From positions 6,348 to 70,347 of the forward strand of contig JASLMH010000002.1 of assembly GCA_030746635.1 (NCBI GenBank): a DNA stretch of 64,000 bases, read 5' to 3'. Positions 1,171 through 47,936 of the stretch are shown one piece after another. The DNA is from Alphaproteobacteria bacterium. GTDB lineage: Bacteria > Pseudomonadota > Alphaproteobacteria > GCA-2731375. A program made the position numbers and the translations under genes. Numbering within the stretch: position 1 is the first letter of the stretch; each line of letters starts with the position of its first letter. The notes beneath the pieces were generated by a model that had not been told where the DNA came from, searched no databases, and saw only the letters and a list, made by a program, of their open reading frames with translations.

Positions 1171-2487
1171 TTAGATTTGTGCCAGCTTCCGGGGCCGCGC
1201 GAAGCCGAGCCCCAGCAGGCCAAGGCTGAACAGCATGATGGCGCCGGGTTCGGGGACATTTATCTCGTCCGGGATGATCTCGGACTGCCATTTGAAAGCA
1301 CAGCGGCCGAAGCGAACGTCGTTGAGGACGATCTTGTCCGCGATGAGCTGCGTACAGCCCTGGGCGTTGTCGATGGCGATGGTGCCGCCCAGCCGGTCCA
1401 GGCTCCAGAACGCCACGCCGTTCAGAATGGTGTTCTGGAAGCTATCGATGGTCTGCGAGATGACGCTGGTCGCGAACAGGACATTGTTCAATCCGATGCC
1501 GCCGGTGCCGGTCAGGATATTGCCATTGCTGATCAGGAAGTTCGCGTTGTCGGCTACCCGAAACACCGCGAAGCCATCGGCGGGGCCGTCGATGACGAGG
1601 TTGGCGTTGGTTAGCTTGAAGTCCTTGTCGCTACCGCCGACCAGGGTGACGACATCGATGACGTTGAGGCCCGGATCGAGGTGGATCGTCAGGGTTTGCT
1701 CGGCCACGTTGGCCGTGGTGAAGGAATTGTCCGAGGCGATCTGGTTGAGCACGCCGGCATCGTCGCCCTTGATCTCGCCCTGAACAGAGCCATCGGTCAG
1801 ATCCAGGATGTCGGTCGCCGCCAGCGCGGGAATGACATTCGCCGCCGAGGCGGGATCGTCGAACAGGTCGTTCATCAGTGCGGTGAAATCCACGTTGCCG
1901 GTGACACCGGCGTAATTGGGATCATCGATGCGGGTGGTTTGATCGGCGTCGTTCGGGTTCACCTGCTGGCCATTGCTGCCGTCCCAGGTGTTCGGAAACA
2001 GGTTGGGATCATTGAAGAACGAGTTCTGGGTGCCGACGTCGCAATCGCTGGCGCTTTGCGTGCAGTGGATGCCCAGGTCGCCATAGACGCCGACGTCCTG
2101 AAGATTGAACACGCCATCGGCGCTGGTGATGGCGATGTTGCCGCCGCCGATCACGCCGCTCGCCACGGGGGCGGCGTTGCTGGGCAGGTCGGGGACGTTG
2201 CCGTCCAGGTCCGGGCCGCCGCCATTGCCGCCGTCCAGGAAGTCCGACGTTGCGGGCACGGGTGCCTTGTTGGCGCCGATCTCGAAATTGTTGACGTTGA
2301 CGGCCTGGCCAACGCCCGGGGCATCGCCCAGATCGTTCACCGGGCCCAGGCCGATCAGGAGATAGTCGTCGGTCTCGCCGGTCGGCACGGCAAGGGGGGT
2401 GGCATGGGCTTGCAGGGAGAAGGAAAGGAAGGTCCCAACCAGTAGCGCTACCCTAACGCCAACACCCGAACATGCTGTCTTCGACAT
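1171..2487 (-). CDS. secreted protein with PEP-CTERM exosortase sorting domain
   Basis: 438 aa ORF with an N-terminal signal peptide (MSKTACSGVGVRVALLVGTFLSFSLQAHA). C-terminal VPEPGAIMLFSLGLLGLGFARPRKL matches PEP-CTERM (VPEP, hydrophobic helix, basic tail). Asn/Gly-rich beta-helix-like body. Confidence 0.7.
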   Translation of the reverse strand: MSKTACSGVGVRVALLVGTFLSFSLQAHATPLAVPTGETDDYLLIGLGPVNDLGDAPGVGQAVNVNNFEIGANKAPVPATSDFLDGGNGGGPDLDGNVPDLPSNAAPVASGVIGGGNIAITSADGVFNLQDVGVYGDLGIHCTQSASDCDVGTQNSFFNDPNLFPNTWDGSNGQQVNPNDADQTTRIDDPNYAGVTGNVDFTALMNDLFDDPASAANVIPALAATDILDLTDGSVQGEIKGDDAGVLNQIASDNSFTTANVAEQTLTIHLDPGLNVIDVVTLVGGSDKDFKLTNANLVIDGPADGFAVFRVADNANFLISNGNILTGTGGIGLNNVLFATSVISQTIDSFQNTILNGVAFWSLDRLGGTIAIDNAQGCTQLIADKIVLNDVRFGRCAFKWQSEIIPDEINVPEPGAIMLFSLGLLGLGFARPRKLAQI

Positions 2488-2839: not shown

Positions 2840-5167
2840 ATGACCAGCGCCGTTCTCGGCCAGTCCATTCCCCGCCTTGAAGACCGCCGGTTCCTGACCG
2901 GTGCCGCCACCTTCACCGACGACATCGATGTCGAGGGTCAACTGTACGGCGCCGTGCTGCGTTCGCCCCATGCCCACGCCATCATCCGCGCCATCGACAC
3001 GGAGGCCGCGGCGGCCGCGCCGGGGGTGGTGGGGGTGCATGTCGAGGCCGATCTGCGGGCCGACGGCCTGGGTGCGTTCCCGTGCGTTGCCGCCGCCGTG
3101 GTCGCCACGGTCGATCCGATCATCGTGCCGCCACGTTATGCCCTGGCCCGAGACCGGGTGCGGCACGTCGGCGATCCGGTGGCCTTCGTGGCGGCGGAAA
3201 GCCTGGCGGCGGCCCTGGACGCGGTCGAGCTGATCGAGGTCGACTACCAGGCCCTGCCGGCGGTGGCCGACCAGCGCGCGGCCCTGGCCCCGGGCGCGCC
3301 CGAGCTTTGGGCGGAGGCGGCGAACAACCTCTCCTACCGGTTCCGGAAGGGTGATCGGGCGGCGGTCGAGCGGGCCATGGCCGAAGCGGCGCATGTGGTC
3401 GAGCTCGACATCACCAACAACCGGGTCTCGGCGGCGCCGATCGAGCCGCGCGTGGCCATCGGCGCCCACGATCCCGCGACCGATGTCCTGACCCTGACCG
3501 TGGCGGGCCAGGGTGTGCACGGCATCCGCAATCAATTGGCCGGTGCCATATTCAACCTGCCCAACGAAAAGATCCGGGTCTTGGCGCCCGACGTCGGCGG
3601 CGGCTTCGGCCTGAAGAATTTCGTCTACCCGGAGCTGGTGCTGGTGCTGTGGGCGGCCCGGCGCCATGGCCGGCCGGTGAAATGGCGGGCCGATCGCAAC
3701 GAGGATTTCCTCAGTTCCACCCATGGCCGCGACATCCGGACCATGGCCCGGCTGGCGCTGGACCCGGACGGCAATTTTCTTGCTCTCGATGCCGACCTGG
3801 TCGCCAACATGGGCGCCTATCTGTCGGCTTTCGGTCCCGGCTGCTCGACCAATTCGGCCTCCACCGCCATGGGCGGGGTTTACGCCATCCCGGATGTCTT
3901 CATGGAGGTGCGCGGCGCTTTCACCAACACGGTGCCGGTCGATGCCTATCGCGGCGCCGGCAAGCCCGAGGCCAACTACATCATCGAGCGGCTGATCGAC
4001 GCCGCCGCCCGGCGCCTGGGCTTCGATCCGGTGGCCCTGCGCCTGCGCAACGTCATCGACGCCTACCCCTATCGCAGCGCCCTGGATCAGGAGATCGATT
4101 CCGGCGGCTTCAAGGAGAATATCGAGGCCGCCGTGCGGCTGGCGGACCGTGACGGTTTCGAGGGGCGGCGGGTCGCGGCGGCCGCACGGGGGCGCCTGCG
4201 CGGCCTGGGCGTCGCCTGTTTTCTCGAAACCGCGCGGGGCGCGCCGGAGGAGGGGGCGGAAATCCGCTTCCGCGCCGACGGCAAGGTGGAGCTGCTGCTG
4301 GGCACCGAGGCCAACGGCCAGGGGCACGAGACCACCTTCCCACAGATCGCCTCGGCCATGCTTGGCCTGCCGATCGAGAGCTTCCATTACATTCAGGCGG
4401 ATACCGGGCGGACCCGCTCCGGCCACGGGCATGGCGGCGCCCGCTCCATGCACATGGGCGGCAGCGCCCTGGTGCTGGCCATGGAGGGGGCGTTGGACAA
4501 GGGCCGAGAGGTGGCGGCGCAATTGCTGCAGGCCGAGGCGGCCGAGCTGGAGTTCGCCGAGGGCCGCTTCAGCGTCCGGGGCAGCGAGCGCGGCGTCTCC
4601 CTGCTGGAGGTGGCGGCGGCGGCGCGCGATCCGAAGACCGCGCCGGACGACGGCGGCAACGGCCTGGATACCTATGCCCGGCGCGAAGGCGCGCCCTTCA
4701 CCTTCCCCAGCGGCTGCCACGTGGCGGAAGTGGAAATCGACCCCGAGACCGGCGGCGTGACCCTGCTGCGCTATCTGATGGTCGACGACTACGGCCGCTT
4801 GCTCAATCCGCGCCTGACCGAGGGCCAGGTGCATGGCGGCGTCACCCAGGGCATCGGCCAGGCCATGGCGGAGACCATCGCCTACGATCCCGAATCCGTC
4901 CAGCAACTGACCGCCACCTTCCTGGACTATGGTGTGCCGAGAGCGACGCAACTGCCAGCCTACGAGACCCACTTCGAGCAGCGCCCGACCGCGGTCAATC
5001 CCCTGGGCGTCAAGGGTTCGGGCCAGGCCGGCTGCATGTCCGCGCCGCAGACCATCGTCAACGCCATCCTCGACGCCCTGGCGCCCCTTGGCATCGACGA
5101 TATCGACATGCCGGCCACGCCCGACCGCATCTGGCGGGCCATCCAGGCGCCGAAGGGGCGGCGGTGA
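2840..5167 (+). CDS. xanthine dehydrogenase family molybdopterin-binding (large) subunit, CoxL/aldehyde oxidase-like
   Basis: ATG at 2840 with GGGAGG SD 6 nt upstream. 775 aa. N-terminal PRLEDRRFLTG and the overall XDH/CoxL large-subunit family pattern recalled from memory. The upstream part of ORF 2675..5167 is leader read-through. Confidence 0.8.
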   Translation: MTSAVLGQSIPRLEDRRFLTGAATFTDDIDVEGQLYGAVLRSPHAHAIIRAIDTEAAAAAPGVVGVHVEADLRADGLGAFPCVAAAVVATVDPIIVPPRYALARDRVRHVGDPVAFVAAESLAAALDAVELIEVDYQALPAVADQRAALAPGAPELWAEAANNLSYRFRKGDRAAVERAMAEAAHVVELDITNNRVSAAPIEPRVAIGAHDPATDVLTLTVAGQGVHGIRNQLAGAIFNLPNEKIRVLAPDVGGGFGLKNFVYPELVLVLWAARRHGRPVKWRADRNEDFLSSTHGRDIRTMARLALDPDGNFLALDADLVANMGAYLSAFGPGCSTNSASTAMGGVYAIPDVFMEVRGAFTNTVPVDAYRGAGKPEANYIIERLIDAAARRLGFDPVALRLRNVIDAYPYRSALDQEIDSGGFKENIEAAVRLADRDGFEGRRVAAAARGRLRGLGVACFLETARGAPEEGAEIRFRADGKVELLLGTEANGQGHETTFPQIASAMLGLPIESFHYIQADTGRTRSGHGHGGARSMHMGGSALVLAMEGALDKGREVAAQLLQAEAAELEFAEGRFSVRGSERGVSLLEVAAAARDPKTAPDDGGNGLDTYARREGAPFTFPSGCHVAEVEIDPETGGVTLLRYLMVDDYGRLLNPRLTEGQVHGGVTQGIGQAMAETIAYDPESVQQLTATFLDYGVPRATQLPAYETHFEQRPTAVNPLGVKGSGQAGCMSAPQTIVNAILDALAPLGIDDIDMPATPDRIWRAIQAPKGRR

Positions 5168-5261
5168 ATCCAGATGCCCGGGTCAGGCCAGGGCATGACA
5201 TAACTTATTGATATTAATATAAAAATCGTCATTGCCGGGCTCGACCCGTCAATCTCGACGG
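5143..5261. repeat. palindromic MITE/REP-like repeat element, copy 1 (two hairpins flanking an AT-rich core)
   Basis: About 120 bp near-identical to 8035-8154. Contains hairpin TGCCCGGGTCAGGCCAGGGCA, the AT-rich core CTTATTGATATTAATA and hairpin ATTGCCGGGCTCGACCCGTCAAT. Its 5' part encodes the last 8 codons and TGA of the XDH-family gene. Confidence 0.75.
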
Positions 5262-5348
5262 TGCTTGACGCTACCGAATGACCCTAAGCGGGCATGGGGC
5301 ATTAGCCGAGACCGTGGCCGTGAATTTGTGTGTAACATCGTTCATCGT

Positions 5349-6935
5349 TCATCGTTCCGGCACACCTGCCGCCCTGAGGTTGTTCAAATATCTCTCCAGA
5401 TATGGCGGGTGAAAGCTGCGCAGCATCGAGGTGATTTTGCATACCGATACATCGGGCAGCAGTTCCCTAGCCCCATCGAGTGCACGGCGGGCTTCCTTGG
5501 TCCTGCCCAGGGCACTGTAGGAGGCGACGAGCAGCAAATGGGACCAGAAGTTGGCGTTCGGCTGCCGGATCGATTTCATTGCGTCGATAACGGCCTGTTC
5601 ATGATTGCCCAACAGCCCATTTGCGCTGCCCCGGAACAGGTAGAACGAAAATAGTGCCGGATCGTGTGGGCTGAGGCGAATGGCGTGATCCGCCAACGGA
5701 AGTGCCAATGCCGCATTGCCGAACCAAATGTGCGTAACCGCAAGGCCATGATATGCGAGGGCAAAATTCGGGTTCAGGTCAATGGCTGTCTCCATCGCCG
5801 AGATGGCTCGTTCGCGGTCGCCTAAGTCGATGCAAACCTGCCCAAGCGCATAATGATTGAAGCTGTCGCGGTCATCCAAGACGATCGCCCGTTTGGCGTC
5901 GCGCACGCCTTGCTCGAGAACCGGCGCGGCATCCGCCACATAGCCAAGGGCGGACTCCGCGTGGGCGATGATGGCAAGTGTGCCGAACGGGCGGGAAAAT
6001 TCAGGCGCCCGTTTGCTTGCCTGTTCGAAAAGCCGGCGCGCTTCCGATAAATCATTCTTGGAAAACCTGTAGAAGTGCCACATGCCGCGCTGATAAAGAT
6101 CCCAGGCGTTCATGTCGGTCTTTTTCGTGTGGGCGATCCGCCGTTCGCTGCCGGCAAGTTCGGCGTCGACGTTGGCGCTGATGGCTTCGGCTAGCTCATC
6201 CTGCAGATCGAAGATGTCGACCAGTTCCCGGTCATATCGTTCTGCCCAGATGTGGTTGCCGGTTTCCGCCTCGATCAACTGCACGGAGACCCGAACCCGG
6301 CTCCCGTCCTTGCGGACGCTGCCTTCCAGCACATAGCGCACCCCCATCTCCCGCCCGACCTGCTTCACGTCAACAGCTTTGCCTTTGTAGGTGAATGTGG
6401 AGTTGCGCGCGATCACCAACAGCCAGCGCAGACGGGACAGGGCCGTGATAACGTCCTCCGTGATCCCGTCGGAGAAGTATTCCTGTTCCGGATCGCCTGA
6501 CATGTTCTCGAGCGGTAGCACGGCGATGGAAGGCTTGCCAGCAGGCGGGGGGTCCGTCAGGCCGGTCACGATGGCGGCGGAGGCCGCTGTCGTTGCGCCG
6601 TGGCCGGCGGCCTCCCGACCGTCGTCGCGCACCTCGACATTGGCGACAAAGCGAAAGCCCCGGCGCGGTAACGTGCGGATATAGTCCTGCCGCCTGCCGT
6701 TGTCGCCGATGGCCAAGCGGGCGTTCTTGATGCAGGTGCTCAAGGCCCAGTCGGAGACATGGCGGCCGGCCCAGATTTGTTGGTTGAATTCCTCCCGGCC
6801 GATCAAGCGATCCCGATGTTCGACCAGATAAAACAGCAGGTCCAGCACCTTCGGTTCAACGGCAACGGCCCGCCCTTGTTTTTGCAGTTCATGGCGATCA
6901 GGGTCCAGTTCGCAGTCCCCGAAAAGATAGGTCAT
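5349..6935 (-). CDS. winged-helix (OmpR/CadC-type trans_reg_C) DNA-binding domain plus TPR-repeat transcriptional regulator
   Basis: Start at M30 of the track ORF (MTYLFGDCELDPDRH...) with GGTGGGGA SD. N-terminal wHTH, central region and C-terminal TPR-like repeats. GC content is visibly lower than the flanks. Confidence 0.7.
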   Translation of the reverse strand: MTYLFGDCELDPDRHELQKQGRAVAVEPKVLDLLFYLVEHRDRLIGREEFNQQIWAGRHVSDWALSTCIKNARLAIGDNGRRQDYIRTLPRRGFRFVANVEVRDDGREAAGHGATTAASAAIVTGLTDPPPAGKPSIAVLPLENMSGDPEQEYFSDGITEDVITALSRLRWLLVIARNSTFTYKGKAVDVKQVGREMGVRYVLEGSVRKDGSRVRVSVQLIEAETGNHIWAERYDRELVDIFDLQDELAEAISANVDAELAGSERRIAHTKKTDMNAWDLYQRGMWHFYRFSKNDLSEARRLFEQASKRAPEFSRPFGTLAIIAHAESALGYVADAAPVLEQGVRDAKRAIVLDDRDSFNHYALGQVCIDLGDRERAISAMETAIDLNPNFALAYHGLAVTHIWFGNAALALPLADHAIRLSPHDPALFSFYLFRGSANGLLGNHEQAVIDAMKSIRQPNANFWSHLLLVASYSALGRTKEARRALDGARELLPDVSVCKITSMLRSFHPPYLERYLNNLRAAGVPER

Positions 6936-7251
6936 TGCGTCCCCACCTATGCACCATGCGCCGTTTAGGCCGCGCGCAAACACCACATGGCGAGACCCGA
7001 AACGCGGGCACCTGTGCGCCATTATAGGGTTGAATGAACCGCCCTTGAAGTTTCACTGATCGCAAGTTTCCTCAAAGCATCCTCAAGAAACCGTCAAGCC
7101 ATAAACCCAATATCCCTCAAGCAGTCGGTTTTCGTGGGTCTTATTGTTCGATCTACGGGGAACCGGAAAACGCCTGCCGGCGGAACGCCGACAAGAACGA
7201 CCGGGGGCAAACCGACGCGACGTCGCAGCGTCTTATCGATGGAGGCCTACC

Positions 7252-7914
7252 ATGAATGAATTCGCCAAAACGCCTAGGCTAACTGGGCTCGGTCTTCGAT
7301 CATTTCAAAGCGGAATTCTCGTCACCACGTTCATGCTCGTTACCGTGGCCGCGTTCGCCCAAAGCCCCCGCGAAAAGATTGCCGCCCGTGGAGTCGACTA
7401 CACGACCGAAGAGTTCATACACCGCGCGGCGGCCGGCGAATTCGAGACCGTCAAACTGTTCCTGGCTGCGGGTATGGATGTGAATGCAAGAAATTCATAC
7501 GCGACCAAAAGGAGGCGGGGTTTTGGGGGACAAACCGCCCTGCATTCGGCTGCCTCGGGTGGACACGCGAAGATTGTTGCATACCTGCTCGAAAAGGGTG
7601 CTGCCTATGACACGAGGGCCAACCACAATTCATCGCCCCTGTTGGGTGCGGCGCTCGCCGGTCATGCGAAAGTCATCGCGTTACTGGTGGAAAAGGGCGC
7701 GGACATCAACAGGCAGGATACATACAGCCAGACCCCGCTAGTTCTCTCCACAAAGTCGGGGAATATCGATGCCGTGAAAATACTGCTGGCTCATGGCGCG
7801 AAGGTGAACGTAATGGACTTCACCCGTGCCACCGCCCTGGATCACGCCAAGAATCCCGAAATCGTCCGGTTGCTGAAAGACGCGGGTGGAAAGAAAGCCG
7901 GCGAACTGCGTTAA
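7252..7914 (+). CDS. secreted ankyrin-repeat protein
   Basis: ATG 7252 with GGAGG SD 6 nt upstream. Signal peptide MNEFAKTPRLTGLGLRSFQSGILVTTFMLVTVAAFAQ. At least four ankyrin repeats (TALHSAASGGHAKIVAYLLEKGA...). Lower GC than the surroundings. Confidence 0.75.
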   Translation: MNEFAKTPRLTGLGLRSFQSGILVTTFMLVTVAAFAQSPREKIAARGVDYTTEEFIHRAAAGEFETVKLFLAAGMDVNARNSYATKRRRGFGGQTALHSAASGGHAKIVAYLLEKGAAYDTRANHNSSPLLGAALAGHAKVIALLVEKGADINRQDTYSQTPLVLSTKSGNIDAVKILLAHGAKVNVMDFTRATALDHAKNPEIVRLLKDAGGKKAGELR

Positions 7915-8034
7915 GCCTGTAATCGCCCGATGACCGCTGTGGGCTGAAGCCAGGCAGTCCATGACGCGTGCGATGTGTCCGTTTTTTCGGAACCGTGATT
8001 CGGACGACCTTGGCGGCGTCACCGCTGGCAGGCG

Positions 8035-8154
8035 GTCCAGGCGGCGAAGGCACGGGGTTGAATCCAGATGCCCGGGTCAGGTCCGGGCATGACATAACTT
8101 ATTGATATTAATAGTAAACTCGTCATTGCCGGGCTCGACCCGGCAATCTCGACG
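8035..8154. repeat. palindromic MITE/REP-like repeat element, copy 2
   Basis: Direct repeat of 5143-5261. Hairpin TGCCCGGGTCAGGTCCGGGCA, AT-rich core, then a perfect hairpin ATTGCCGGGCTCGACCCGGCAAT. Confidence 0.75.
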
Positions 8155-8250
8155 GCGTGTGGCCTGGCGATACCAGCCTACGCCGTCATCAGCTCCCGCG
8201 CGGCCTGGACGATCGCATCCTTGCCCGGCGGTACAGCCGCTTCCATGGCG

Positions 8251-9012
8251 TTATTCGACCTCCGACATCTCGATGCCGAAGTCGTTGGCCAGGGCGGCGC
8301 CGAAGGCGCGCTCGTCGGCGATCGGTTGTTCCTGCCGACCGGCCGCCGTGGTCTCCACCAGCCTGTCGTCGGTCAGGGTCAGCAGCCGTCCGTCCCGGCG
8401 GCGCGAGCAGACCCTGCTTTGGGTGAAATGGCTGTCGGCCGACGTCTGGTGGTGGTCGCACATGGCGGTGAAATCCGCCAGCCGACGAGGGGTCAGCGAG
8501 AATTGATAGCGATCCCGCCAAGGCCCGCCGGGCGGTCTGGCGGCCATCCGCCAATCGCCGTCCCGCCGGGCGAGGCGATATTCGCTGTCGCCGCGACGCT
8601 GCGGTCCGGCCCCGTCCAGACAAAGCGGCTCGGTAAAGCCATCGCCGAAGCCGACGTCGGCCAGCCAGCGGCCTTCCGTTTCCACCAGCAGGGTGAGGTG
8701 ATCGAATTCCGGTGCGAGGGCGCCGTCCTTGCCGACCACCCGGGCCGACAGCAACGACACGGCGAAGCCCAGTTCCCGCAATAACGCCGCGAACAAGCCG
8801 TTCAACTCGAAGCAGAAGCCGCCGCGTCGGCGGCCGACGATCTTTTCGAACAGCGCCGCCTCGTTCAGGACGATCGGCCGGCCCAGGTGGATATCCAGGT
8901 TCTCGAACGGCACGGTTTCGAGGTGGGCCCGATGCAGCGCCCGCAGGGTTTCCGCATTGACATCCCTGGGGCCGGCGTGGCCGATACGCGCCAGATAGGC
9001 GTCCAGATCCAT
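8251..9012 (-). CDS. arylamine N-acetyltransferase (NAT family)
   Basis: PFENLD motif and catalytic-cysteine motif RRGGFCFELN. N-terminus MDLDAYLARIGH resembles bacterial NATs. An alternative ATG lies 12 nt upstream at 9024. Confidence 0.8.
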   Translation of the reverse strand: MDLDAYLARIGHAGPRDVNAETLRALHRAHLETVPFENLDIHLGRPIVLNEAALFEKIVGRRRGGFCFELNGLFAALLRELGFAVSLLSARVVGKDGALAPEFDHLTLLVETEGRWLADVGFGDGFTEPLCLDGAGPQRRGDSEYRLARRDGDWRMAARPPGGPWRDRYQFSLTPRRLADFTAMCDHHQTSADSHFTQSRVCSRRRDGRLLTLTDDRLVETTAAGRQEQPIADERAFGAALANDFGIEMSEVE

Positions 9013-9097
9013 TGGACCGGGCATCCCTTTGCCGTAGTACTTGCCTGGATCAAGCTAGGGCCATGCCGCTCGGCCCGCAAGGTGGCGCCGGCGGCGG

Positions 9098-11236
9098 CTA
9101 GGCCGCCGCGGCCTGCCATTGCGGTGTTTCGACGAAGCCGCTGTCGACTTCCAGCCGTCGCATGATCTCTTCGATGGTGCCGCGTTCCTCCGGACTGAAG
9201 GTGCCGTCGGCCTCGGCCACGCACATGCACAGCAGGACCAGCAGTTTCGATAGTTCGGGACGCCGCTTCAGCGGGTCCAGCTTGTCCAGATCGACCACCG
9301 CGCCTGCCGCCAGCGGCTCGGCCGGGCGGTCGTCGGCGGCCGCCGATCGGGCCACGATCCTGGCTTGGAGGTCCTGGGCGTATTGGTTGTAGGCGCTGCG
9401 GAACGATTCACCGGTGAAGCGGCCGTAGATGCTCTGGCCGAAACGCTGCCAGAATTCCCCCAGGGCGCGGGTTTCCCGGTCGTCATGGAGTTCGTCGGCA
9501 TAGACCACGTTCGCCGTGGCCACGGTGAAGGCTTGCTCGACCGCCGCGTCGTCGTCGATGCCGCGACACTCGTACCTGATGCGGTCCAGCACTTGCGCGT
9601 CGAGGAACATCGAGCGGATGCGCTCGCTGGAGGTGAGCTGGCGGTTCTTGCGGTACCAGCTCGGGATCAGCGCGCCGACCAGCAGGCCGACGAAGCCGCC
9701 CTTGAGAACGAAAACCCAAGGGTTCCAGCGGCCCCGGAACCCGGCATCCTTGGTGCCGTCGATGATGCCCCCGACGCCCTCCATCCAATAGAAGGCGATG
9801 ACGCTGGCGCAGGACATGACGACACAGGTCAGGATCGCGTCCCAGTAGGCGGGGCGGCGCAGGTCGAGCGTGCCGTGGCTTCTGGTGCGTCCGGTCAGAT
9901 AGGCGATGGTAATGGCCAGCGCCACCGATTGCAGGACATAAGGATACGACCAGGCCAGGTCTCTGCCGACCAGTTGCAGGTTCTCGGCCAGCGGCTTGAA
10001 ATCGACCAGGTTGAGGAAGAACCGCAGCATGAAGGACAGCGACAGCCAGAACACCACCGCACAGGCGCCGGAAATGAAATACTCATGCCAGGGTCGCGAT
10101 GCCTTGCGCCGCTCCGCCGTCGAAGAGCCGAACCAGTTTGGCAGCAGCGCGGCGACCACCGCCGAAGCGTATATGCTGGCCATCAGCACCGCGACGAAGA
10201 ACACCGGGTTCAGGTGCAATTCGCCCTGCTTGGTGCTCATCAGGTTCTTGACGGCGGATTCGCCGATCGCCAACACGACGAAAACCACCACGATGCACCA
10301 GAACAGCAACAGCAGTTGCCCGGTGGTCAGTACGCCGCGGCCGACGCTGCCGTCGCCGAAGCCAAGCGAATGCAACTGTTCCCGTCGGGCCGCTTCGGTC
10401 TTCTCGGCGTACAGCACGGCTCGGGCGATCAGGTTCGTGCTGTCGCGGATCAGGACCTCGTTGAAGGACTGGAATATCCGCTTCTTCTCGTCCAACAGCT
10501 GGTTCTCGTATTCCGACACCTCGTCCTTTTCGGCCAGTTCGCCCTTGAGCTGGAAGAAGGATTTCGCCAGTTCGGTGACCTTGTCGAACTGGGCCTGAGC
10601 CGAGAGGAAGGCCTCGTTGTTCTCCTTGGCGAATTCGATATAGGCCTTGCGCGAGCTTTCCCGCCAGCCCTGCAACAGGCTGCAAAGCGCGGCGGCGACC
10701 GGCCAGCCGTAGGCGGGGCTGTCCTCGGTGTCGAAGCTCAACACATCCTCGTCGATGCCACGTTGCCTTGCCGCCGCATGCACGTTGGTGGCGTTGGCGT
10801 TGTTGAACTCGAACGGCACCCAGGCCATCTGCACCGCCAGTTCGTTTGCCTCCGCTGGAATCTTGCCCAGGCTCCAGATCCGAGCACGCAGGCCGGTGTC
10901 GGCCTTTTCCAGGCCTGGGATGGAGAGCAGCAGCACCGTCAGGCCCAGGGCGACCAGGATCGGCACCGCCAGGCCCTGATCCAGGGTCGTCTTGATCTCT
11001 TCCGGGATGGTGATGCCGAAAATCGGCAGCAGCTTCAGGATCTGCGTCACGATCCCGGGGAAGCTCACCAGCAGCATGCCAACGGTGAAGTAGAAGACGA
11101 GCAGGACGCCGACATAGAGCGCCAGCGCGCGGTAGTATTGAAAACAGGTCGTGGAACTCCGGTGCGATTTCGGCGTGCGGTACCTGGAATAGCCATGTGC
11201 GGCGACGAAAGCCGCGCCTAGAACCCATTCAGACAT
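9098..11236 (-). CDS. large polytopic membrane protein with central coiled-coil region and C-terminal TerB-like domain (hypothetical)
   Basis: Start MSEWVLGAAF with GGGAGG SD 7 nt upstream. Two N-terminal TM helices, a coiled-coil soluble region of about 200 aa, then about six TM helices. The C-terminal LSKLLVLLCMCVAEADGTFSPEERGTIEEIMRRL resembles a TerB-family motif. Confidence 0.55.
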   Translation of the reverse strand: MSEWVLGAAFVAAHGYSRYRTPKSHRSSTTCFQYYRALALYVGVLLVFYFTVGMLLVSFPGIVTQILKLLPIFGITIPEEIKTTLDQGLAVPILVALGLTVLLLSIPGLEKADTGLRARIWSLGKIPAEANELAVQMAWVPFEFNNANATNVHAAARQRGIDEDVLSFDTEDSPAYGWPVAAALCSLLQGWRESSRKAYIEFAKENNEAFLSAQAQFDKVTELAKSFFQLKGELAEKDEVSEYENQLLDEKKRIFQSFNEVLIRDSTNLIARAVLYAEKTEAARREQLHSLGFGDGSVGRGVLTTGQLLLLFWCIVVVFVVLAIGESAVKNLMSTKQGELHLNPVFFVAVLMASIYASAVVAALLPNWFGSSTAERRKASRPWHEYFISGACAVVFWLSLSFMLRFFLNLVDFKPLAENLQLVGRDLAWSYPYVLQSVALAITIAYLTGRTRSHGTLDLRRPAYWDAILTCVVMSCASVIAFYWMEGVGGIIDGTKDAGFRGRWNPWVFVLKGGFVGLLVGALIPSWYRKNRQLTSSERIRSMFLDAQVLDRIRYECRGIDDDAAVEQAFTVATANVVYADELHDDRETRALGEFWQRFGQSIYGRFTGESFRSAYNQYAQDLQARIVARSAAADDRPAEPLAAGAVVDLDKLDPLKRRPELSKLLVLLCMCVAEADGTFSPEERGTIEEIMRRLEVDSGFVETPQWQAAAA

Positions 11237-11641
11237 CGGCAACCCTCCCCATCTCGCAGGCACCCCCGCCTGCCTTCGGGCGGCGTGCCTACGACGCCGC
11301 GCCGGTCATTCCGATAGTCCGGGACCCCTGGGTCCCGCCAAGCCGCTGGCCATCGGCCACACGATCACTGCTTGGACCAACTATTGGACCGCCGGTCTGG
11401 CCGACCGGCGGCGATTGTCGATGGTTCGAGCGATAGGCTCATTCGGTCCGATAATCCGAGGAGCTGCCCCAATTTTGGCTCATGAACCGACGCCCTCACA
11501 CCGACTCCTCAAACTAGACGCGATTCTAGCCCAAGATGGCGCCGCGAGGAAGGTTGGGGCGGTTTTCTCGCCGTATGGTAGCGGCCGCGGCCTCGATGGC
11601 GCACCAGCGGCCGGGGATTTTCCAGCCGCCGCCGACGGGGC

Positions 11642-12433
11642 TCAGCGCGGCCAGGTGCGCAACGCGCACAGGCCGCCGTCCACCGGCAGAAACACGCCGG
11701 TGACCCAGCGGGCCTCGTCGCTGGCCAGGTAGACCGCCGCCCAGCCGATGTCCCAGCCGGTGCCCTCGGTCTGCATGGGCACCATCTGGCGGCGGCGTTC
11801 GCGCGCCTCCTCACCCAGGCGGGCGACCATCGGCGTGTTGACCGAGCCGATGATGATGCAGTTGCAGCGGATACCCTCGGTGGCGTAGTCGGCGGCGATC
11901 GACAGGGTCAGGCCATGCACTCCCGATTTGGTGGCGGCATAGGCGGCGGCGCCCTCGCTGCTGATCAGGCCCAGGGCGCCGGCGATCGAGGAGACGTTGA
12001 TGATCGAACCGCCGCCGCCGCTCTCTCGCATCAGGGGCACGGCGGCGCGGCTGCACAACATGGCCGAGGTCATGTTGACGTGCAGCAGGTTGTGCCAGTC
12101 CTCGTCCGAGACCTCCTCGACCCGGCCCGGGGCGGCGCCGACCCCGACGTTGTTGGCCAGCACGTCCAGGCGGCCGTAGCGCTCTTGTACCGCCTCGGCC
12201 ATGGCCGCGACCTGATCGGCCTGGGTGACGTCGGCGGCGAACACCGAGGCCTCGCCGCCTTCCCCGGCGATCTCCCGCCGCAATTCCTCGGCCCGCTCCG
12301 CCGAGCGATTGACCAACAGGACCTTGGCCCCCTCACGGGCGAACAGCATGGCCATGGCCTTGCCGTTGCCCACGCCTTGGCCGCGCGGCGCGGCCCCCGT
12401 GACGATCGCCACCTTGCCGTCCAGGCGTCCCAT
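11642..12433 (-). CDS. SDR family short-chain dehydrogenase/reductase
   Basis: TGAAPRGQGVG Rossmann motif, NNVG and the YAATK catalytic motif. AAGGAG SD 7 nt upstream. Confidence 0.85.
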   Translation of the reverse strand: MGRLDGKVAIVTGAAPRGQGVGNGKAMAMLFAREGAKVLLVNRSAERAEELRREIAGEGGEASVFAADVTQADQVAAMAEAVQERYGRLDVLANNVGVGAAPGRVEEVSDEDWHNLLHVNMTSAMLCSRAAVPLMRESGGGGSIINVSSIAGALGLISSEGAAAYAATKSGVHGLTLSIAADYATEGIRCNCIIIGSVNTPMVARLGEEARERRRQMVPMQTEGTGWDIGWAAVYLASDEARWVTGVFLPVDGGLCALRTWPR

Positions 12434-12459
12434 GCCGTGATCTCCTTGCTTGTTCCGGT

Positions 12460-13095
12460 TCAGCCGAGCGGCGAAAACGGCGCCGGCAGCAGCACCATCG
12501 AGTTCATCTCTTCCAGCATGCCGCCGGCCTGACCCAGGAAGGCCTGCCAGTCGGGGTCCTGCATGGCAGCGCCGCGGGCCTCGGCCCGGGCGTCCAGGCT
12601 CTGGTAGGCCCAGAGGTGCGAGACTTCGTTCGGCTCGCCCGCCTCGGTCAGCCAGAGGCAGACGTTCTTGGAGTATTTTTCCCGCGCCGGCATCGCCTCG
12701 GATATCGCGGCGACGAAGTTCGGTCCTTCGCCGACCCGGGCCTGGTAGTGGCGGTACTCATAGACATTGCCGCTTTCGGCCGGCGGCGTCAGTGGGCGTT
12801 GCGGATGCATCAGGCGGATCCGCTGATGGCGGATCAGCGATCGGACAAGGGGCACGAAGCCTTCGATCCAATCCTTGTTCTGGGCCAGCCGGGCGCGGGA
12901 TTCCTGGCGGGTGTTCAGATCCTCGTGCGACCAGAGGTGCACGACCTGGTTCAACGGGCCGAATTCCGAGACCCAGAAGCCTTCCATCCTGCCGTAGTCG
13001 TTGCCGCGGATCGGGATGCCCTTTTCCGCCACCGCTTTCAGGAATTCCGGCGCCTTGCCGGGCCACATGGTGTAGGTCCTCATCTCGTGGATCAT
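12460..13095 (-). CDS. NIPSNAP family protein (two tandem NIPSNAP domains)
   Basis: The two halves share the (V/I)xExRxYxxxPG...VxHLW pattern. Start at MIHEMRTYT with GAGGAG SD. Confidence 0.7.
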   Translation of the reverse strand: MIHEMRTYTMWPGKAPEFLKAVAEKGIPIRGNDYGRMEGFWVSEFGPLNQVVHLWSHEDLNTRQESRARLAQNKDWIEGFVPLVRSLIRHQRIRLMHPQRPLTPPAESGNVYEYRHYQARVGEGPNFVAAISEAMPAREKYSKNVCLWLTEAGEPNEVSHLWAYQSLDARAEARGAAMQDPDWQAFLGQAGGMLEEMNSMVLLPAPFSPLG

Positions 13096-13132
13096 CGGGG
13101 ATGTCTCCTCTGTTGACGGTCCTTGCGCCACC

Positions 13133-14260
13133 TTACCGAATGAAGGGCAGCTCGGTCACTTCCGCCCGGCGCTCGCCGGCCGGCGTGGTCACCTGGACCT
13201 GGTTGCCGATTTGCGCGATTTCGCTCTTCAAGAGAGCCATGGCGATGTTGCGGTGCAGGCGCGGCGAATGCACCGCGCTGCTGACCTGGCCGACCGCAGC
13301 GCCGGCCTGGTGCACCGGCCATTTGCCGGCGCTGTTCGGCAACGGCTCACCATCGATGAACAGGCCGACCAGCCGGCGCGGCGGTCCGCTGTCGCGCATG
13401 TGCCGCAAATTCTCCATGCCGATATATTCGCCCGGCTTGTCCAGATCGCAGAAGCGTTCCAAGCCGATCTCCAAGGGACTGACGTCGGCATCCATATCGC
13501 CGCCGTGAGAGAGCAGGGCGCTTTCCGTACGTTCGATCTGATTGGGCGTGCCGGGGCCGATGCCATGGGGCGCCCCGGCCGCCATCACCAGATCCCATAG
13601 CCGGCCGCCCTGGGCACCGTCGGTGAGATACAATTCGTACCCGCCCTGTTTGCTCCAGCCCGAGCGGGCCAGCACCAGGGGGATGCCCTGCAACTCCGTT
13701 TCACGGAACCAGAAATAGCGTAATTCCCGCACCCAGTCGCCGAACAGCTCGGCGATCACGTCCTCCGCCTTGGGGCCTTGCACCGCCAGGGGCGAGGCAT
13801 CCGGCTCGGTGACCAGGACGTACATATTGCGTTCCTTGGCGATGGCGTCGACCCAGAGCAGCAGATCGCCGTCGGCCAGGGACAGCCAAATTTGGTCTTC
13901 CGCCAGCCGCAACAGCACCGGGTCGTTCAGCATGCCGCCGAAATGGTTGCAGATCGGCACGTACAGGCCCTGGCCGACGATGCAGTCCGACAGATCCCGC
14001 GGCGTCAGCAATTGCGCCAGGTTCAGGGCGTCCGGACCGAACAATTCGACCTGCCGCTGGCAGGCAACGTCCCAAAGGCTGACATCGTTGATCAGCCGCC
14101 AATACTCCCCCTCCGCATCGCCGTAGGAGGTCGGCATGTACATGTGGTTATAGATGGTGAAGGCGGTACAGCCGGCCGCCACCGTACGGTCGAAGAAGGG
14201 CGAGGGACGCACCCGGGCGCCAAAGGTGATGTCGGCACGATAGTCCAGCGGCAGCTTCAT
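13133..14260 (-). CDS. aminomethyltransferase (GcvT) family protein, THF-dependent demethylase-like (DmdA/LigM-like)
   Basis: 375 aa with a GcvT-family fold signature along its length. GGGGG SD upstream of the ATG at 14260. Confidence 0.75.
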   Translation of the reverse strand: MKLPLDYRADITFGARVRPSPFFDRTVAAGCTAFTIYNHMYMPTSYGDAEGEYWRLINDVSLWDVACQRQVELFGPDALNLAQLLTPRDLSDCIVGQGLYVPICNHFGGMLNDPVLLRLAEDQIWLSLADGDLLLWVDAIAKERNMYVLVTEPDASPLAVQGPKAEDVIAELFGDWVRELRYFWFRETELQGIPLVLARSGWSKQGGYELYLTDGAQGGRLWDLVMAAGAPHGIGPGTPNQIERTESALLSHGGDMDADVSPLEIGLERFCDLDKPGEYIGMENLRHMRDSGPPRRLVGLFIDGEPLPNSAGKWPVHQAGAAVGQVSSAVHSPRLHRNIAMALLKSEIAQIGNQVQVTTPAGERRAEVTELPFIR

Positions 14261-14389
14261 GATCGCCCCCGTTTGCCTCTGGCGGAGCGACCAAGACGAC
14301 GCCGCCGGCGAGATTATCGCCGACGATGTTAGTCCGCCCCGGCAGGCAAGAAAATCGTTTGCTTTGCCGGGATGATCACCAAGGTCCGG

Positions 14390-14782
14390 TTAGCTGGCGG
14401 TCAGGAAAACCGAGCCGACCATCAACAAGCCGATCAACCCGATGGCCCAGACTCCGGTGCGCAGCCACGGGATGCCGATCAGGTAGACCACGGCATAGAC
14501 CAAACGGGCGATCACGAAGATCTGCGCCCCCAACGCGCTAGTCGCGTTCGACAACCCGGCCAGGTGGGCCGCGATCACCAGGGCCGCGAACAGCACCAGG
14601 CTTTCCAGCATGTTGCGGTGGGCCCGCAGGCCACGGTCGGCCATGCCCTCGTAGGTGACGCCCTCGCGATTGCCCGCCAACGCCGCCATGCCAACCTGCG
14701 GTATGGCCAGGGTCACGGCCACCACCATCTGGACCAGTGTCAGGACAACGGCCCAGAACAGCATCCATAGTTCCACGGTCAT
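14390..14782 (-). CDS. MAPEG family membrane protein
   Basis: 130 aa, four predicted TM helices, MAPEG-like pattern. Confidence 0.65.
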   Translation of the reverse strand: MTVELWMLFWAVVLTLVQMVVAVTLAIPQVGMAALAGNREGVTYEGMADRGLRAHRNMLESLVLFAALVIAAHLAGLSNATSALGAQIFVIARLVYAVVYLIGIPWLRTGVWAIGLIGLLMVGSVFLTAS

Positions 14783-14894
14783 GATGTCTACCCCATGCGG
14801 CCGGGACCGCCCGGGGATCTTCCTAGGCGAATCCCAATGTCATTCAACATAACACAGGCGCTGGCGGCGACGGCCGCCTGCACGCGAACGGGCG

Positions 14895-15308
14895 TCAGGC
14901 GGGACGGATCACCGGCAGGGTCAGATCGTCCGTGGCGTCCTCGAAATCCACCCGCACCGGCAGGCCGATACGCAGCCCTTCGGGGTCCAGGTCGCGGGCC
15001 TGGGCGCACATCCGCACGCCCTCGTCCAGGTCGACGATGACCAGCACCAGCGGCAGGTCCCCCTTGAAGCCGGGGTGGAAGGCGTGGTGCGAGATGGTCC
15101 AGCTATGCACCTGGCCCTTGCCGCTGGCCTCCATCCATTCGGTGTCCATGGAGAAACAGGCATCGCAGACCGGGCGCGGGTAGTGCCTGACCTTGCCGCA
15201 GGCGCCGCATTTCTGCAGCACCAGTCGGTGTTCCTTCATGGCCTCCCAGAACGGCCGGCTTTCCTCGTTCGGCGGGGGTAGCGGCTTGTCGTAAGTGGCG
15301 GCCGTCAT
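14895..15308 (-). CDS. Zn-ribbon/OB-fold DUF35 family protein (thiolase partner)
   Basis: CGACGK...CDAC zinc ribbon followed by an OB fold. GAGGAA SD. Lies 4 nt downstream of the thiolase-like gene, the classic SCP-x thiolase plus DUF35 pair. Confidence 0.75.
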   Translation of the reverse strand: MTAATYDKPLPPPNEESRPFWEAMKEHRLVLQKCGACGKVRHYPRPVCDACFSMDTEWMEASGKGQVHSWTISHHAFHPGFKGDLPLVLVIVDLDEGVRMCAQARDLDPEGLRIGLPVRVDFEDATDDLTLPVIRPA

Positions 15309-15312
15309 GGTC

Positions 15313-16467
15313 CTAGTTCCTCATGATGGCGATGGAACCGTCGCCCAGGTCGCCGTAGCCGGTGACCAGGCCGATCTCGGCATCCGCCACCTGGGCCTTG
15401 CCGCCGTCGCCGCGCAACTGTTTGACCAGTTCGCAGACGTGGTTCATGCCGATGATGTGCGATTGCGAGAGCAGGCCGCCATGGGTGTTGATGGGCAGTT
15501 CGCCGCCCAGGGCGATGCGGCCGCCGGATACGAAATCGCCGCCCTCGCCCTTCTGGCAGAAGCCCAGATCCTCCAACTGGCACAGCACCGTGTAGGTGAA
15601 GCAGTCATAGACCTCGGCGACGTCGATGGCCTCGTGGCCGATGCCGGCCATGGCGAAGGCCCGGGGCGCCGCCTTGGCCAGGCCAATCTTGGTCAGGTCC
15701 GGCCGCTGGCTGATGGCGGAGGGCGAGTCGGGATGGCCCTCGGCCACGCCCATGATGTAGATCGGCCGCCGCGCCAGGTCCTTGGCCCTCTCGGCGCCGC
15801 TGATGATCACGGCGGCGGCGCCGTCGCTTTCCAGGCAGCAATCGAACAGCCGCAGCGGGTCCGAGATCATCCGCGAGTTCTGGTGGTCCTCGACGGTCAG
15901 CGGCTTCTTCATCACCGCGTTGTCGTTCAGCATGGCGTGGTTGCGCATGGTCACGGCGATCTCGGCGAATTGCCGCGAGGTGGTGCCGTACAATTCCATG
16001 TGCCGGCGGGCCATCGGCGCGTAAAGCTGCGCCGGGGCGATGTTGCCGCTGGGCATCTCGTATTCGCCGAAGACCCGGAACTGGGGAATTGCCTGGGCCC
16101 GGCCGCCGATGCGCGGGCCGGAATAGCCGTTGCGGCCGATCGGGATCAGCACGTGGTTGGCGGCGCCGGCGACGATCGCCGATGTCGCGGCCTGGATGGC
16201 GGCCACGGCGCTGGCGCCGCCCAGGGGCGTGACGGCGGAAAACCGCAAATCCTCGATGCCCAGGTTGGTGATGAATTCCTCCGCCACCATCTCCATGTTG
16301 CCATAGGGTATGACGCCGTCGATGTCGCCGGGTTGCAGCCCGGCATCGGCGATCGCCCTCAACGCGGCTTCCATCTGCAAGGCGGCGACGCTCCTGCCCG
16401 AGCCGCGGGTATATTCGGTTTCGCCGACGCCGGTGACGCAGCAGCTTTCCCGAAGACCGGTCATCAT
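15313..16467 (-). CDS. thiolase-like (SCP-x/nonspecific lipid-transfer-protein type) acetyl-CoA acyltransferase
   Basis: Thiolase-fold pattern with catalytic Cys in CVTGVGET. The track ORF starts at a TTG; the first ATG is at 16467. Confidence 0.8.
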   Translation of the reverse strand: MMTGLRESCCVTGVGETEYTRGSGRSVAALQMEAALRAIADAGLQPGDIDGVIPYGNMEMVAEEFITNLGIEDLRFSAVTPLGGASAVAAIQAATSAIVAGAANHVLIPIGRNGYSGPRIGGRAQAIPQFRVFGEYEMPSGNIAPAQLYAPMARRHMELYGTTSRQFAEIAVTMRNHAMLNDNAVMKKPLTVEDHQNSRMISDPLRLFDCCLESDGAAAVIISGAERAKDLARRPIYIMGVAEGHPDSPSAISQRPDLTKIGLAKAAPRAFAMAGIGHEAIDVAEVYDCFTYTVLCQLEDLGFCQKGEGGDFVSGGRIALGGELPINTHGGLLSQSHIIGMNHVCELVKQLRGDGGKAQVADAEIGLVTGYGDLGDGSIAIMRN

Positions 16468-16803
16468 CAACTCTCCACGTTCGATCTCGTTTCCGCCGGC
16501 GATTATCCGGCAACCGCGAAGGCCATGCCAGCCCCGTGAACTGGATTTTTCGGCCGCCGGGCGTTATAAGGGCGCCGGCGCCGCTTGGGCGACCCTGAAA
16601 GGACGATCATCGTGATCCTGCGCGAAGATATTCTGCGCGAACGAATTACCCAGCCGCCGGGCGGCTGTCCCGGCCGGGAAGGCGACGCCGCCGCCGTTGC
16701 CGCCCGATGTTGCGCCTGATCCGGACCTGGCGTTAAGGGCGTATCGCCGCCGAAGGGCGGTATCACAAGCGAAAATCCAAAATCATTGACGGGACGAATC
16801 CCG

Positions 16804-18159
16804 ATGTCCGCACTGCAAATCCACAATACCGCCAATCGGCGCAAGGAAAGCTTCGAACCGCTGCAACCCGACCATGTGCGCCTCTATGTCTGCGGCCCGA
16901 CGGTCTATGACCACCCGCACGTGGGCAATGCCCGGCCGGTGGTGGTGTTCGACAGCTTCGTGCGGCTGCTGCGCCGGCTGTATCCGAAGGTCACCTACGT
17001 CCGCAACATCACCGATATCGAGGACAAGATCATCGACCGGGCGGCGGCCCGCGGCATCTCCATCGCCGAAGTGACGGCGGAGACCATCAAGGCCTTCCAC
17101 GATGACGTGGCGGCCCTGAATGCCCTGTCCCCCGATCACGAACCGCGAGCCACCGATTACGTCACCGGCATGATCGCCATGACGGAAACCCTGCTCGCCA
17201 AGGGCAATGCCTACGAGGCCGAGGGCCATGTGCTGTTCGATACCGCCTCGATGGCCGATTACGGCGCCTTCGCCCGGCGCAGCAGCGACGAGTTGATCGC
17301 CGGCGCCCGGGTCGAGGTGGCGCCATACAAGCGCAACCCCACCGACTTCGTACTCTGGAAGCCATCGGATGAGAGCCAGCCCGGCTGGGACAGCCCCTGG
17401 GGCAAGGGCCGGCCCGGCTGGCACCTGGAATGCTCGGTGATGTCCGAGGCTCTGCTGGGCGAGACCTTCGACATCCACGGCGGTGGCGTCGATCTGGTGT
17501 TCCCCCATCACCAGAACGAGATCGCCCAAAGCACCTGCGCCCATGATGGCGCCTTGTTCGCCAAGTATTGGATGCACAACGGCCACGTCACCGTCGGCGG
17601 CGAGAAGATGTCGAAGTCCCTGGGCAATTTCCTCACCGTGCACGAATTGCTGAAGGAACAGCCGGGCGAGGCGATCCGCCTCTCCCTGCTGTCGGCGCAC
17701 TATCGCCAGCCCCTCGACTTCACCCGCGAAGCCGTGGGGGAGGCCCGGCGCATCCTGGATCGCTGGTACCGGGCGGCGGGCAAGGTTCCGGCCGCCGACG
17801 AACTGCCCGAGGCGGTGCTGGCCGCCCTGTGCGACGATATGAACACGCCCAGGGCAATCACCGAGATGCACCGGCTGGCCGATGCGGCGATGGCGGGCGA
17901 CGGACGGGCGGCGGCCGAATTGCGCAGCAGCGGCGAGATGCTGGGCGTGCTGTGCCAGGATGCCGGCCTATGGTTCCAGGGCGACGAAGACGCCGACGGT
18001 CCGTCCGCCGACGAGATCGAGCAATTGATCGCCCGCCGCGCCGCGGCGCGACGGCAAAAGGATTTCGCCACCTCGGACCGGATCAGGGACGAACTGGCGG
18101 ATCAGGGCATCGTGTTGGAAGACGCCGCCGGCGGCACCACCTGGCGACGGGGGGGATGA
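16804..18159 (+). CDS. cysS: cysteine--tRNA ligase
   Basis: HVGN (HIGH-class) and KMSKS motifs, a zinc-binding Cys, end-to-end class I aaRS similarity. The track ORF begins at an upstream TTG; the ATG is at 16804. Confidence 0.9.
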   Translation: MSALQIHNTANRRKESFEPLQPDHVRLYVCGPTVYDHPHVGNARPVVVFDSFVRLLRRLYPKVTYVRNITDIEDKIIDRAAARGISIAEVTAETIKAFHDDVAALNALSPDHEPRATDYVTGMIAMTETLLAKGNAYEAEGHVLFDTASMADYGAFARRSSDELIAGARVEVAPYKRNPTDFVLWKPSDESQPGWDSPWGKGRPGWHLECSVMSEALLGETFDIHGGGVDLVFPHHQNEIAQSTCAHDGALFAKYWMHNGHVTVGGEKMSKSLGNFLTVHELLKEQPGEAIRLSLLSAHYRQPLDFTREAVGEARRILDRWYRAAGKVPAADELPEAVLAALCDDMNTPRAITEMHRLADAAMAGDGRAAAELRSSGEMLGVLCQDAGLWFQGDEDADGPSADEIEQLIARRAAARRQKDFATSDRIRDELADQGIVLEDAAGGTTWRRGG

Positions 18160-47852: not shown

Positions 47853-47936
47853 GATTGCCGGATCAAGTCCGGCAATGACAATAAGCCATTGAAATATATA
47901 CATTAATTGTCATTGCCGGGCTTGACCCGGCAATCC
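47853..47936. repeat. palindromic MITE/REP-like repeat element, copy 3 (variant)
   Basis: ATTGCCGGATCAAGTCCGGCAAT hairpin, then the AT-rich core GACAATAAGCCATTGAAATATATACATTAATTGTC, then the ATTGCCGGGCTTGACCCGGCAAT hairpin. Shares the ATTGCCGGG...CCCGGCAAT stem with copies 1 and 2. Sits between convergent sppA and the acyl-CoA synthetase. Confidence 0.65.

Follow-up and report, generated by a model that had tools for sequence, protein, structure and literature searches.

A 64,000-nt window of contig JASLMH010000002.1 (assembly GCA_030746635.1, positions 6,348–70,347 of the forward strand) was analyzed. It derives from an uncultured marine alphaproteobacterium, and the best homologues of its genes are labelled Alphaproteobacteria or Rhodospirillaceae metagenome-assembled genomes (MAGs). 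Between the gene for a molybdopterin-binding subunit of the xanthine dehydrogenase (XDH)/CoxL family and the gene for an arylamine N-acetyltransferase (NAT), the window contains a 2763-bp module (5262–8024; all coordinates are those of the window unless a contig is named). The module comprises a regulator gene, a divergent promoter region, an ankyrin-repeat gene and two short non-coding tails, and is enclosed by two direct copies of a 131-nt repeat. The arrangement is probably a small islet that was acquired by horizontal transfer and bears a duplicated junction as its mark; in this view, a foreign module of 2.76 kb was inserted at the convergent XDH/NAT junction. The repeat had been taken for a miniature inverted-repeat transposable element (MITE)-like element in the preliminary description of this DNA; instead, it consists of a dimer of CGTC-type repetitive extragenic palindromic (REP) sequences and 37 nt of the XDH 3′ end. 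The locus adds a further case to two kinds already known, CGTC REP dimers and islets that lack a recombinase and displace a gene end.

The two repeat copies, A (5131–5261) and B (8025–8155), both on the plus strand, align without gaps over 131 nt with 117 identical positions (89%). This confirms the near-identical copies in the same orientation that had been reported at 5143–5261 and 8035–8154, with the left edge moved about 10 nt further out. The boundaries of the repeat are sharp, since gapped local alignment detected no homology past either end. The mismatches between the copies are scattered over the 131 nt and leave no identical core. A 26-mer from the AT-rich core and a 22-mer from the left end were each found at exactly two places in the 64 kb, where 0.00–0.01 occurrences are expected. 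Each copy has three parts: the first 37 nt, an inverted pair of hairpins around a 28-nt AT-rich spacer, and a tail of about 7 nt. The sequence of the locus is about 100% identical in independent assemblies (NCBI MAG GCA_030744475.1, Tara/ENA, JGI and Logan), and two contigs bridge both repeat copies; therefore, the repeat-module arrangement is real and not an assembly artefact. Seven contigs from different metagenome assemblies start or stop within the right hairpin of the dimer in copy B (8115–8164), which suggests either further genomic copies of this hairpin or a disruption of assembly graphs by the palindrome, and which is not a copy count.

The XDH gene (2840–5167, plus strand) encodes 775 residues, as in the 775-aa gene call of contig L002, with the Pfam domains Ald_Xan_dh_C, MoCoBD_1 and MoCoBD_2. 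The first 37 nt of copy A (5131–5167) form the functional end of this gene, namely its final 11 codons and stop codon (...IWRAIQAPKGRR*), which read WRAIQAPKGRR*. The corresponding 37 nt of copy B (8025–8061, plus strand) form an XDH 3′-end relic, WQAVQAAKARG*, which is identical to 5131–5167 at 29 of 37 positions, ends in a stop codon at the same place as the native one, and has no gene body attached. XDH orthologues from other MAGs end similarly (...WRAIQDAKGA*, ...WRAIRDAKGAR* and ...WRAIQTAKRR*), and no REP follows XDH in those orthologue-bearing genomes whose contexts were compared; therefore, the 37 nt are native XDH coding sequence rather than part of a mobile element. The 37 nt upstream of 14 other members of the dimer family match copy A at only 7–15 of 37 positions, compared with 29 of 37 between A and B. 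Because the repeat contains an XDH end that these 14 members lack, copies A and B are, by sequence comparison, one duplicated gene-end/REP junction and not two independent insertions.

The relic has diverged more than the REP part of the repeat (8 of 37 versus 6 of 94 positions differ; Fisher p = 0.023). This extra divergence fits either free drift of the relic with the dimers constrained or homogenised, or an origin of the relic from a diverged orthologue. Directly to the left of the relic, positions 8011–8023 match 13 nt inside the XDH gene exactly (TGGCGGCGTCACC, 4834–4846). This identity, which is not significant (5% of shuffles), was all that a search for a longer XDH relic turned up, and it could be either microhomology used in an illegitimate join or a chance match.

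The REP dimer of copy A (dimer A, 5173–5254, plus strand) is head-to-head and consists of a left hairpin (5173–5199), an AT-rich spacer (5200–5227) and a right hairpin (5228–5254) with the sequence CGTC-ATTGCCGGG-CTCGA-CCCGtCAAT. In dimer B (8067–8148, plus strand), likewise head-to-head, both hairpins are perfect, with ATGCCCGGGTCAGGTCCGGGCAT on the left and CGTC-ATTGCCGGG-CTCGA-CCCGGCAAT on the right. Folding gives a z of −4.5 for copy B, and of −1.4 and −2.5 for copy A, which has stem mismatches. A third, canonical head-to-head dimer (copy C, 47853–47935, plus strand) is composed of ATGGATTGCCGGATCAAGTCCGGCAATGAC, a 29-nt AT-rich spacer and GTCATTGCCGGGCTTGACCCGGCAATCCAT. No further copy of either hairpin type was found in the 64-kb window at up to five mismatches, so that the window holds three REP dimers. 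All three lie between convergent genes: XDH and the regulator, the ankyrin gene and NAT, and, for copy C, the genes for a peptidase S49 and an AMP-binding protein.

The hairpin pair is a head-to-head dimer of the CGTC-tagged REP, a widespread alphaproteobacterial class. As described by Di Nocera, De Gregorio & Rocco (2013, PMC3733652), CGTC REPs carry a CGTC head, often TGTC, with CCTC as a variant, followed by a stem of 8–9 bp that begins with A-T and T-A pairs, a loop of 4–5 nt and a CCA tail. They are found mostly in Alphaproteobacteria, mainly as head-to-head dimers with spacers of 20–100 nt, and, unlike GTAG REPs, are not associated with genes for REP-associated tyrosine transposases (RAYTs). 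The window copies share the head tag with this class: the right arms of A and B contain tCGTCATTGCC, and both arms of C as well as the left arms contain TGTCAT... on the appropriate strand. The right arm (ATTGCCGGG / CTCGA / CCCGGCAAT) has a 9-bp stem starting with AT and a 5-nt loop, and the left-arm stem is 8–9 bp long. The spacer of about 28 nt, the heterodimeric arms, the intergenic location and the alphaproteobacterial host also agree with the class, as does the CCA tail of copy C. This copy and those from MAGs end in ...CAATCCA(G/T), whereas A and B begin with CCAGAT and end in ...CAATCTCGACGG; these outer ends (CCAGAT... and ...CTCGACGG) depart from the consensus, and their spacer is unusually AT-rich.

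Scans with a dimer pattern were made of a genome collection and a metagenome-contig collection, neither of which includes the host. Among the species-representative genomes, the same heterodimer was detected in several alphaproteobacterial MAGs, with at least eight copies on a single 7.3-Mb contig (CBDDPY010000002.1), and the metagenome contigs gave almost exclusively chance matches. The consensus of the MAG dimers is CTGGATGCCCGGATCAAGTCCGGGCATGAC, a spacer with TAAG..ATTGA, and CGTCATTGCCGGGCTTGACCCGGCAATCCAG. The three window copies and 13 copies from other MAGs are all head-to-head, with spacers of 26–31 nt. In these 16 dimers, 98.3% of the stem cells are paired and compensatory changes occur in five left-arm pairs; the search pattern fixed the right arm, and the conservation of that arm is therefore ascertained, not discovered. 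The dimer has no DNA match on plasmids. No part of the window matches Rfam at the gathering threshold, and at E ≤ 1 there is only one chance match, to a miRNA. REPINs, which are mobilised by RAYTs (Bertels & Rainey 2011, PMC3116915), likewise consist of two inverted REP hairpins and a spacer and can adopt either a two-hairpin fold or a single long hairpin. However, RAYT-linked REPs carry a GTAG head, and the heads here are CGTC or TGTC. No transposase domain, RAYT included, was seen in the part of the window that was scanned against Pfam. With the stem extended to CGTC...GACG, a T-rich tract (GACGATTTTTATATT in copy A) follows the right arm on the minus strand, and a weaker tract follows the left arm on the plus strand. 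Because T-rich tracts follow both arms, it is plausible that the REP dimer acts as a bidirectional terminator, or as an RNA-end hairpin, for the converging transcripts.

The two genes of the module are divergently oriented, with a 316-nt intergenic region between them. The regulator (5349–6935, minus strand, 528 residues) has an N-terminal OmpR/CadC-type winged-helix domain (Pfam Trans_reg_C) and C-terminal TolB-like/tetratricopeptide (TPR) repeats, and the exact protein is present on contigs of the species. The ankyrin-repeat protein (7252–7914, plus strand, 220 residues) matches Pfam Ank_2 at 5e-26 and has a signal-peptide-like N-terminus. The Pfam assignments (Trans_reg_C, TPR and Ank) agree with the earlier identification of this pair as a CadC/OmpR-type winged helix-turn-helix-TPR regulator and a divergent ankyrin gene. 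The lower GC content that had been noted between the repeats was upheld by the overall base composition and by that at third codon positions. The GC content of the module is 0.588, compared with 0.658 for the window and 0.66–0.73 for the flanks. The GC content at third codon positions (GC3) is 0.726 in the regulator gene and 0.643 in the ankyrin gene, compared with 0.83–0.92 in nine neighboring called genes. These are the two lowest values among 52 open reading frames (ORFs) with a coding pattern; the other 50 lie at 0.858 ± 0.040 with a minimum of 0.740, which places the regulator and ankyrin genes at z values of about −3.3 and −5.5, respectively.

The regulator has a single close homologue (P0241, 78% identity), and its remaining matches are partial or at most 63% identical. 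This homologue is encoded on the marine contigs L071 and L072 (56–58% GC), where its gene and a 220-aa ankyrin gene form the same pair, again divergent. The ankyrin protein of the L071 pair is 68% identical to that of the window over 220 residues without gaps, and the two genes are 80% and 76% identical at the nucleotide level. The homology with L071/L072 is confined to window positions 5346–7915, which hold both genes and an intervening spacer that aligns except for a stretch of about 100 nt. The flanking genes differ, with Amidohydro_2 and AMP-binding genes on one side and a SnoaL_3 gene on the other, and no REP hairpins were found around the gene pair in L071/L072. In these contigs, the GC3 values of the pair (0.59 and 0.76) lie within the range of its neighbors (0.51–0.77). 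These observations support the view that the pair travels as a unit and would suit a lower-GC genome better than its present host. Horizontal acquisition is the best reading, because the module is a compositional outlier and the same pair occurs elsewhere, in a lower-GC lineage and in a different neighborhood. Plasmid proteins include only distant relatives of the two module proteins (at most 41% and 36% identical), and the search for viral relatives of the ankyrin protein found none.

The proposed history starts from an XDH/NAT junction that would already have borne a CGTC-type REP head-to-head dimer before the insertion. The insertion would have left this junction in two copies, of which copy A stayed on the XDH gene and supplied its working stop codon. 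Copy B would have been displaced by 2.9 kb downstream; its own REP dimer is preceded there by a decaying relic, the terminal 37 nt of an XDH gene. The most likely process is recombination that used homology in XDH and the REP dimer as its anchor and closed with an illegitimate join at 8024|8025, a one-step picture consistent with every boundary. It could have followed either of two routes. In the first, homology-facilitated illegitimate recombination (‘3′-end displacement’) would push the old 3′ end of the recipient downstream; in the second, a circularised fragment (XDH end, REP, regulator, ankyrin gene and tail) would integrate by a single crossover. Both routes would need a relative of the host that already carried XDH, REP and module as the proximate donor, and the ultimate source of the module would be a lineage of about 55–60% GC, from which it was captured in an earlier event. 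The direction and the mechanism of transfer are inferred. The REP dimer itself is a bystander or a patch of homology and not a transposon end. The preliminary description had proposed a horizontally acquired module, possibly mobilised or delimited by the repeat; acquisition is likely and the repeats do delimit the module, but nothing shows mobilisation.

Displacement of 3′ ends by homology-anchored insertion has been proposed for rhs loci and for effector-immunity arrays of the Vibrio type VI secretion system (T6SS) (PMC5361080). The present locus resembles those cases in that the new DNA lies right after a conserved gene, no recombinase is present, and an orphaned old 3′ end of the upstream gene (8025–8061) lies downstream of the insert. 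In contrast to the rhs and T6SS cases, the anchor is a metabolic oxidoreductase, the relic amounts to only 37 nt plus a REP dimer, and there was a single round of insertion.

Several points weigh against this reading. Neither an empty site nor a donor locus was found among XDH and NAT homologues (six contexts compared), and the nearest relatives (74% identity for XDH, 65% for NAT) show no synteny and have no REP after XDH. With 78% and 68% identity, the module is no closer to its L071 counterpart than native genes are to their best matches. Since the host lineage is isolated (native XDH and NAT have best non-self matches of 74% and 65%), values of 78% and 68% alone are no proof of transfer, and the case for transfer is based on composition and context, not on phylogeny. 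The XDH gene shows no internal compositional break; its GC3 of 0.875 is host-like, with 0.78–0.95 maintained right to the stop codon, and therefore the compositional boundary lies at or after REP dimer A. A low-GC donor thus cannot have supplied the 3′ part of XDH, and a two-step history must be assumed. Finally, a simple terminator scan calls none of the REP arms.

The repeat pair might instead be unrelated to the arrival of the module. Dimer A with 37 nt of its left flank would then have been copied about 2.9 kb downstream into the ankyrin/NAT spacer at a later time, either by template switching at the hairpins or by REP transposition with carry-over of the flank. Dimers A and B do look like sister copies, with a shared non-consensus CCAGAT end, a common CTCGACGG tail and near-identical spacers; the lack of a compositional break in XDH is as expected, and a separate terminator-like hairpin was already present 3′ of the ankyrin gene. 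Such local copying is nevertheless unlikely, as it requires an extra event, CGTC REPs have no known moving mechanism or associated transposase (PMC3733652), and the repeat boundaries agree with the edges of the low-GC segment to the extent that those edges can be discerned.

Site-specific integration is still less probable than local copying. It would make the REP dimer and adjacent bases an att-like site for a recombinase encoded in trans, and the module an integrase-less mobilisable islet. As with integrative elements such as 3′-end-targeting islands and dRS3 prophages, the insert lies between direct repeats, and the target gene is intact, its 3′ end being preserved by one copy. Filamentous prophages integrate at Neisseria dRS3 repeats, and Xer-dependent elements offer further precedent. 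The dRS3 repeats are themselves CGTC-1 REPs (PMC3733652). Unlike those islands and prophages, the present insert is only 2.8 kb long with two cargo genes and has no integrase, and the mismatches are spread along the 131 nt without an identical core. No recombinase is encoded in the module or among the called genes of 3558–17914, the module in L071/L072 is not flanked by REPs, and relatives of the module proteins on plasmids are no closer than about 41%, with none on viral contigs. An integrase-borne genomic island was also considered and rejected, as the segment holds only the regulator and ankyrin genes and no tyrosine or serine recombinase. The same applies to an integron cassette with an attC site, whose core sites would be RYYYAAC and GTTRRRY at the ends of a single imperfect palindrome: by direct reading, GTTGAAT is present in copy B only (8057–8063; GGTGAAT in copy A) with no inverse core at the far end, the two genes are divergent with their own promoter region, and no integrase is found among the genes of 3558–17914.

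There is only a slim chance that the two genes are native. They would have been inherited vertically, their low GC content would have another cause, and the repeat would be the remnant of an old tandem duplication followed by a deletion. The identity of the module to its only close homologue (78% and 68%), which resembles that of native genes to their best matches, and the frequency of the regulator family among marine Rhodospirillaceae-like MAGs would agree with this. It would have to account for two genes that are GC3 outliers by 3 to 5 standard deviations, for a different context of the pair in L071/L072, and for two precise rearrangements. Two independent MITE or REPIN insertions that flank the genes by chance, or a composite transposon, can be dismissed as extremely improbable: REP dimers are repeated elements and a third copy is present in the window, but 37 nt of the repeat are unique XDH coding sequence absent from the family, there is neither a target-site duplication nor a transposase, and the spacer, which is highly variable elsewhere in the family, is identical at 25 of 28 positions between A and B. 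A MITE was rejected as a candidate on similar grounds, as A, B and C are all without a short flanking duplication, their arms are REP hairpins, and no parent insertion sequence was found.

The preferred reading, a foreign module inserted with duplication of the XDH/NAT junction, describes an ordinary kind of event that does not challenge current understanding. It offers a small, clean example of how foreign genes without an integrase settle in a streamlined marine genome. The insertion kept the stop codon of the neighboring gene, and each of the two new convergent junctions received its own hairpin dimer. A pair of repeats around a cassette need not signal transposition, and here it is a 37-nt relic of a gene end that distinguishes a duplicated junction from two insertions.

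On contig L071, direct copies of an intergenic repeat of about 145 nt lie on either side of the regulator-ankyrin pair; this repeat is an unrelated one and has no Rfam match. Its copies lie at 45–190, 2903–3047 and 5675–5803 of that contig, and the third continues in L072 (3254–3400). The conserved blocks are AATGCTCGA..CAAGCGGA..GTGCCATCAACGGACTGTTAG..CTAAT..CTAG.TG..GTCCAC..CATCA. All three copies are on the same strand, with the second and third just downstream of plus-strand genes (AMP-binding and regulator, respectively). The neighboring Amidohydro_2/AMP-binding unit is bracketed likewise, and the spacings of the repeat are 2858 and 2772 nt. Because the pair and the adjacent two-gene unit are both bracketed by that genome's own repeat, one might speculate, with little expectation of being right, that gene-end/REP-dimer junctions are reusable landing pads at which marine Alphaproteobacteria exchange small, repeat-bounded cassettes without a recombinase.

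The C-terminal 75% of the regulator (the TolB-like/TPR part) shares about 55–63% identity with numerous adenylate-cyclase/TPR proteins from marine Rhodospirillaceae-like MAGs, and the close homologue of the regulator is labelled ‘TolB-like protein’ by JGI. The protein looks like a domain-swapped relative, in which a winged helix would replace the cyclase domain. By inspection, the N-terminus of the ankyrin protein has an n-region with K/R, a hydrophobic core and an AFA|QS site, features that are kept in the homologue, and the protein is probably secreted. The preliminary description had pointed out that bacterial ankyrin proteins often act as host-interaction effectors; for this protein, such a role would be hypothetical. 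In free-living marine bacteria, the pairing of a regulator with a putatively secreted ankyrin protein might be ecologically interesting. Downstream of the ankyrin gene, the right tail of the module contains a terminator-like hairpin followed by a T6 run (7963–7989, plus strand), identified by consensus match only. Shadow ORFs of the module have no Pfam matches, and no recombinase or transposase domain was found in the module, in the upstream genes for XDH and a PEP-CTERM protein, or in the called genes covering 3558–17914. Three tandem copies of the heptamer CATCGTT (5336–5356) span the regulator stop codon.

The NAT gene (8251–9012, minus strand; Pfam Acetyltransf_2 at 6e-64, GC3 0.831) is the native right neighbor of the module and is convergent with the ankyrin gene. 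Further out, a PEP-CTERM-anchored protein of 438 residues is encoded upstream of XDH (1171–2487, minus strand). Downstream of NAT lies a gene for a 712-aa protein (9098–11236, minus strand) with no Pfam domain except a sub-threshold TerB match. Both genes have host-like GC3. Every contig of the species has the same layout, with about 100% sequence identity; the sole divergent stretch is a contig end within NAT, where the last 100 nt of contig L004 (window 8796–8893) contain 14 mismatches, the remainder of L004 being identical to the window. A second strain or species, roughly 86% identical, seems to be present in sample ERZ27286381.

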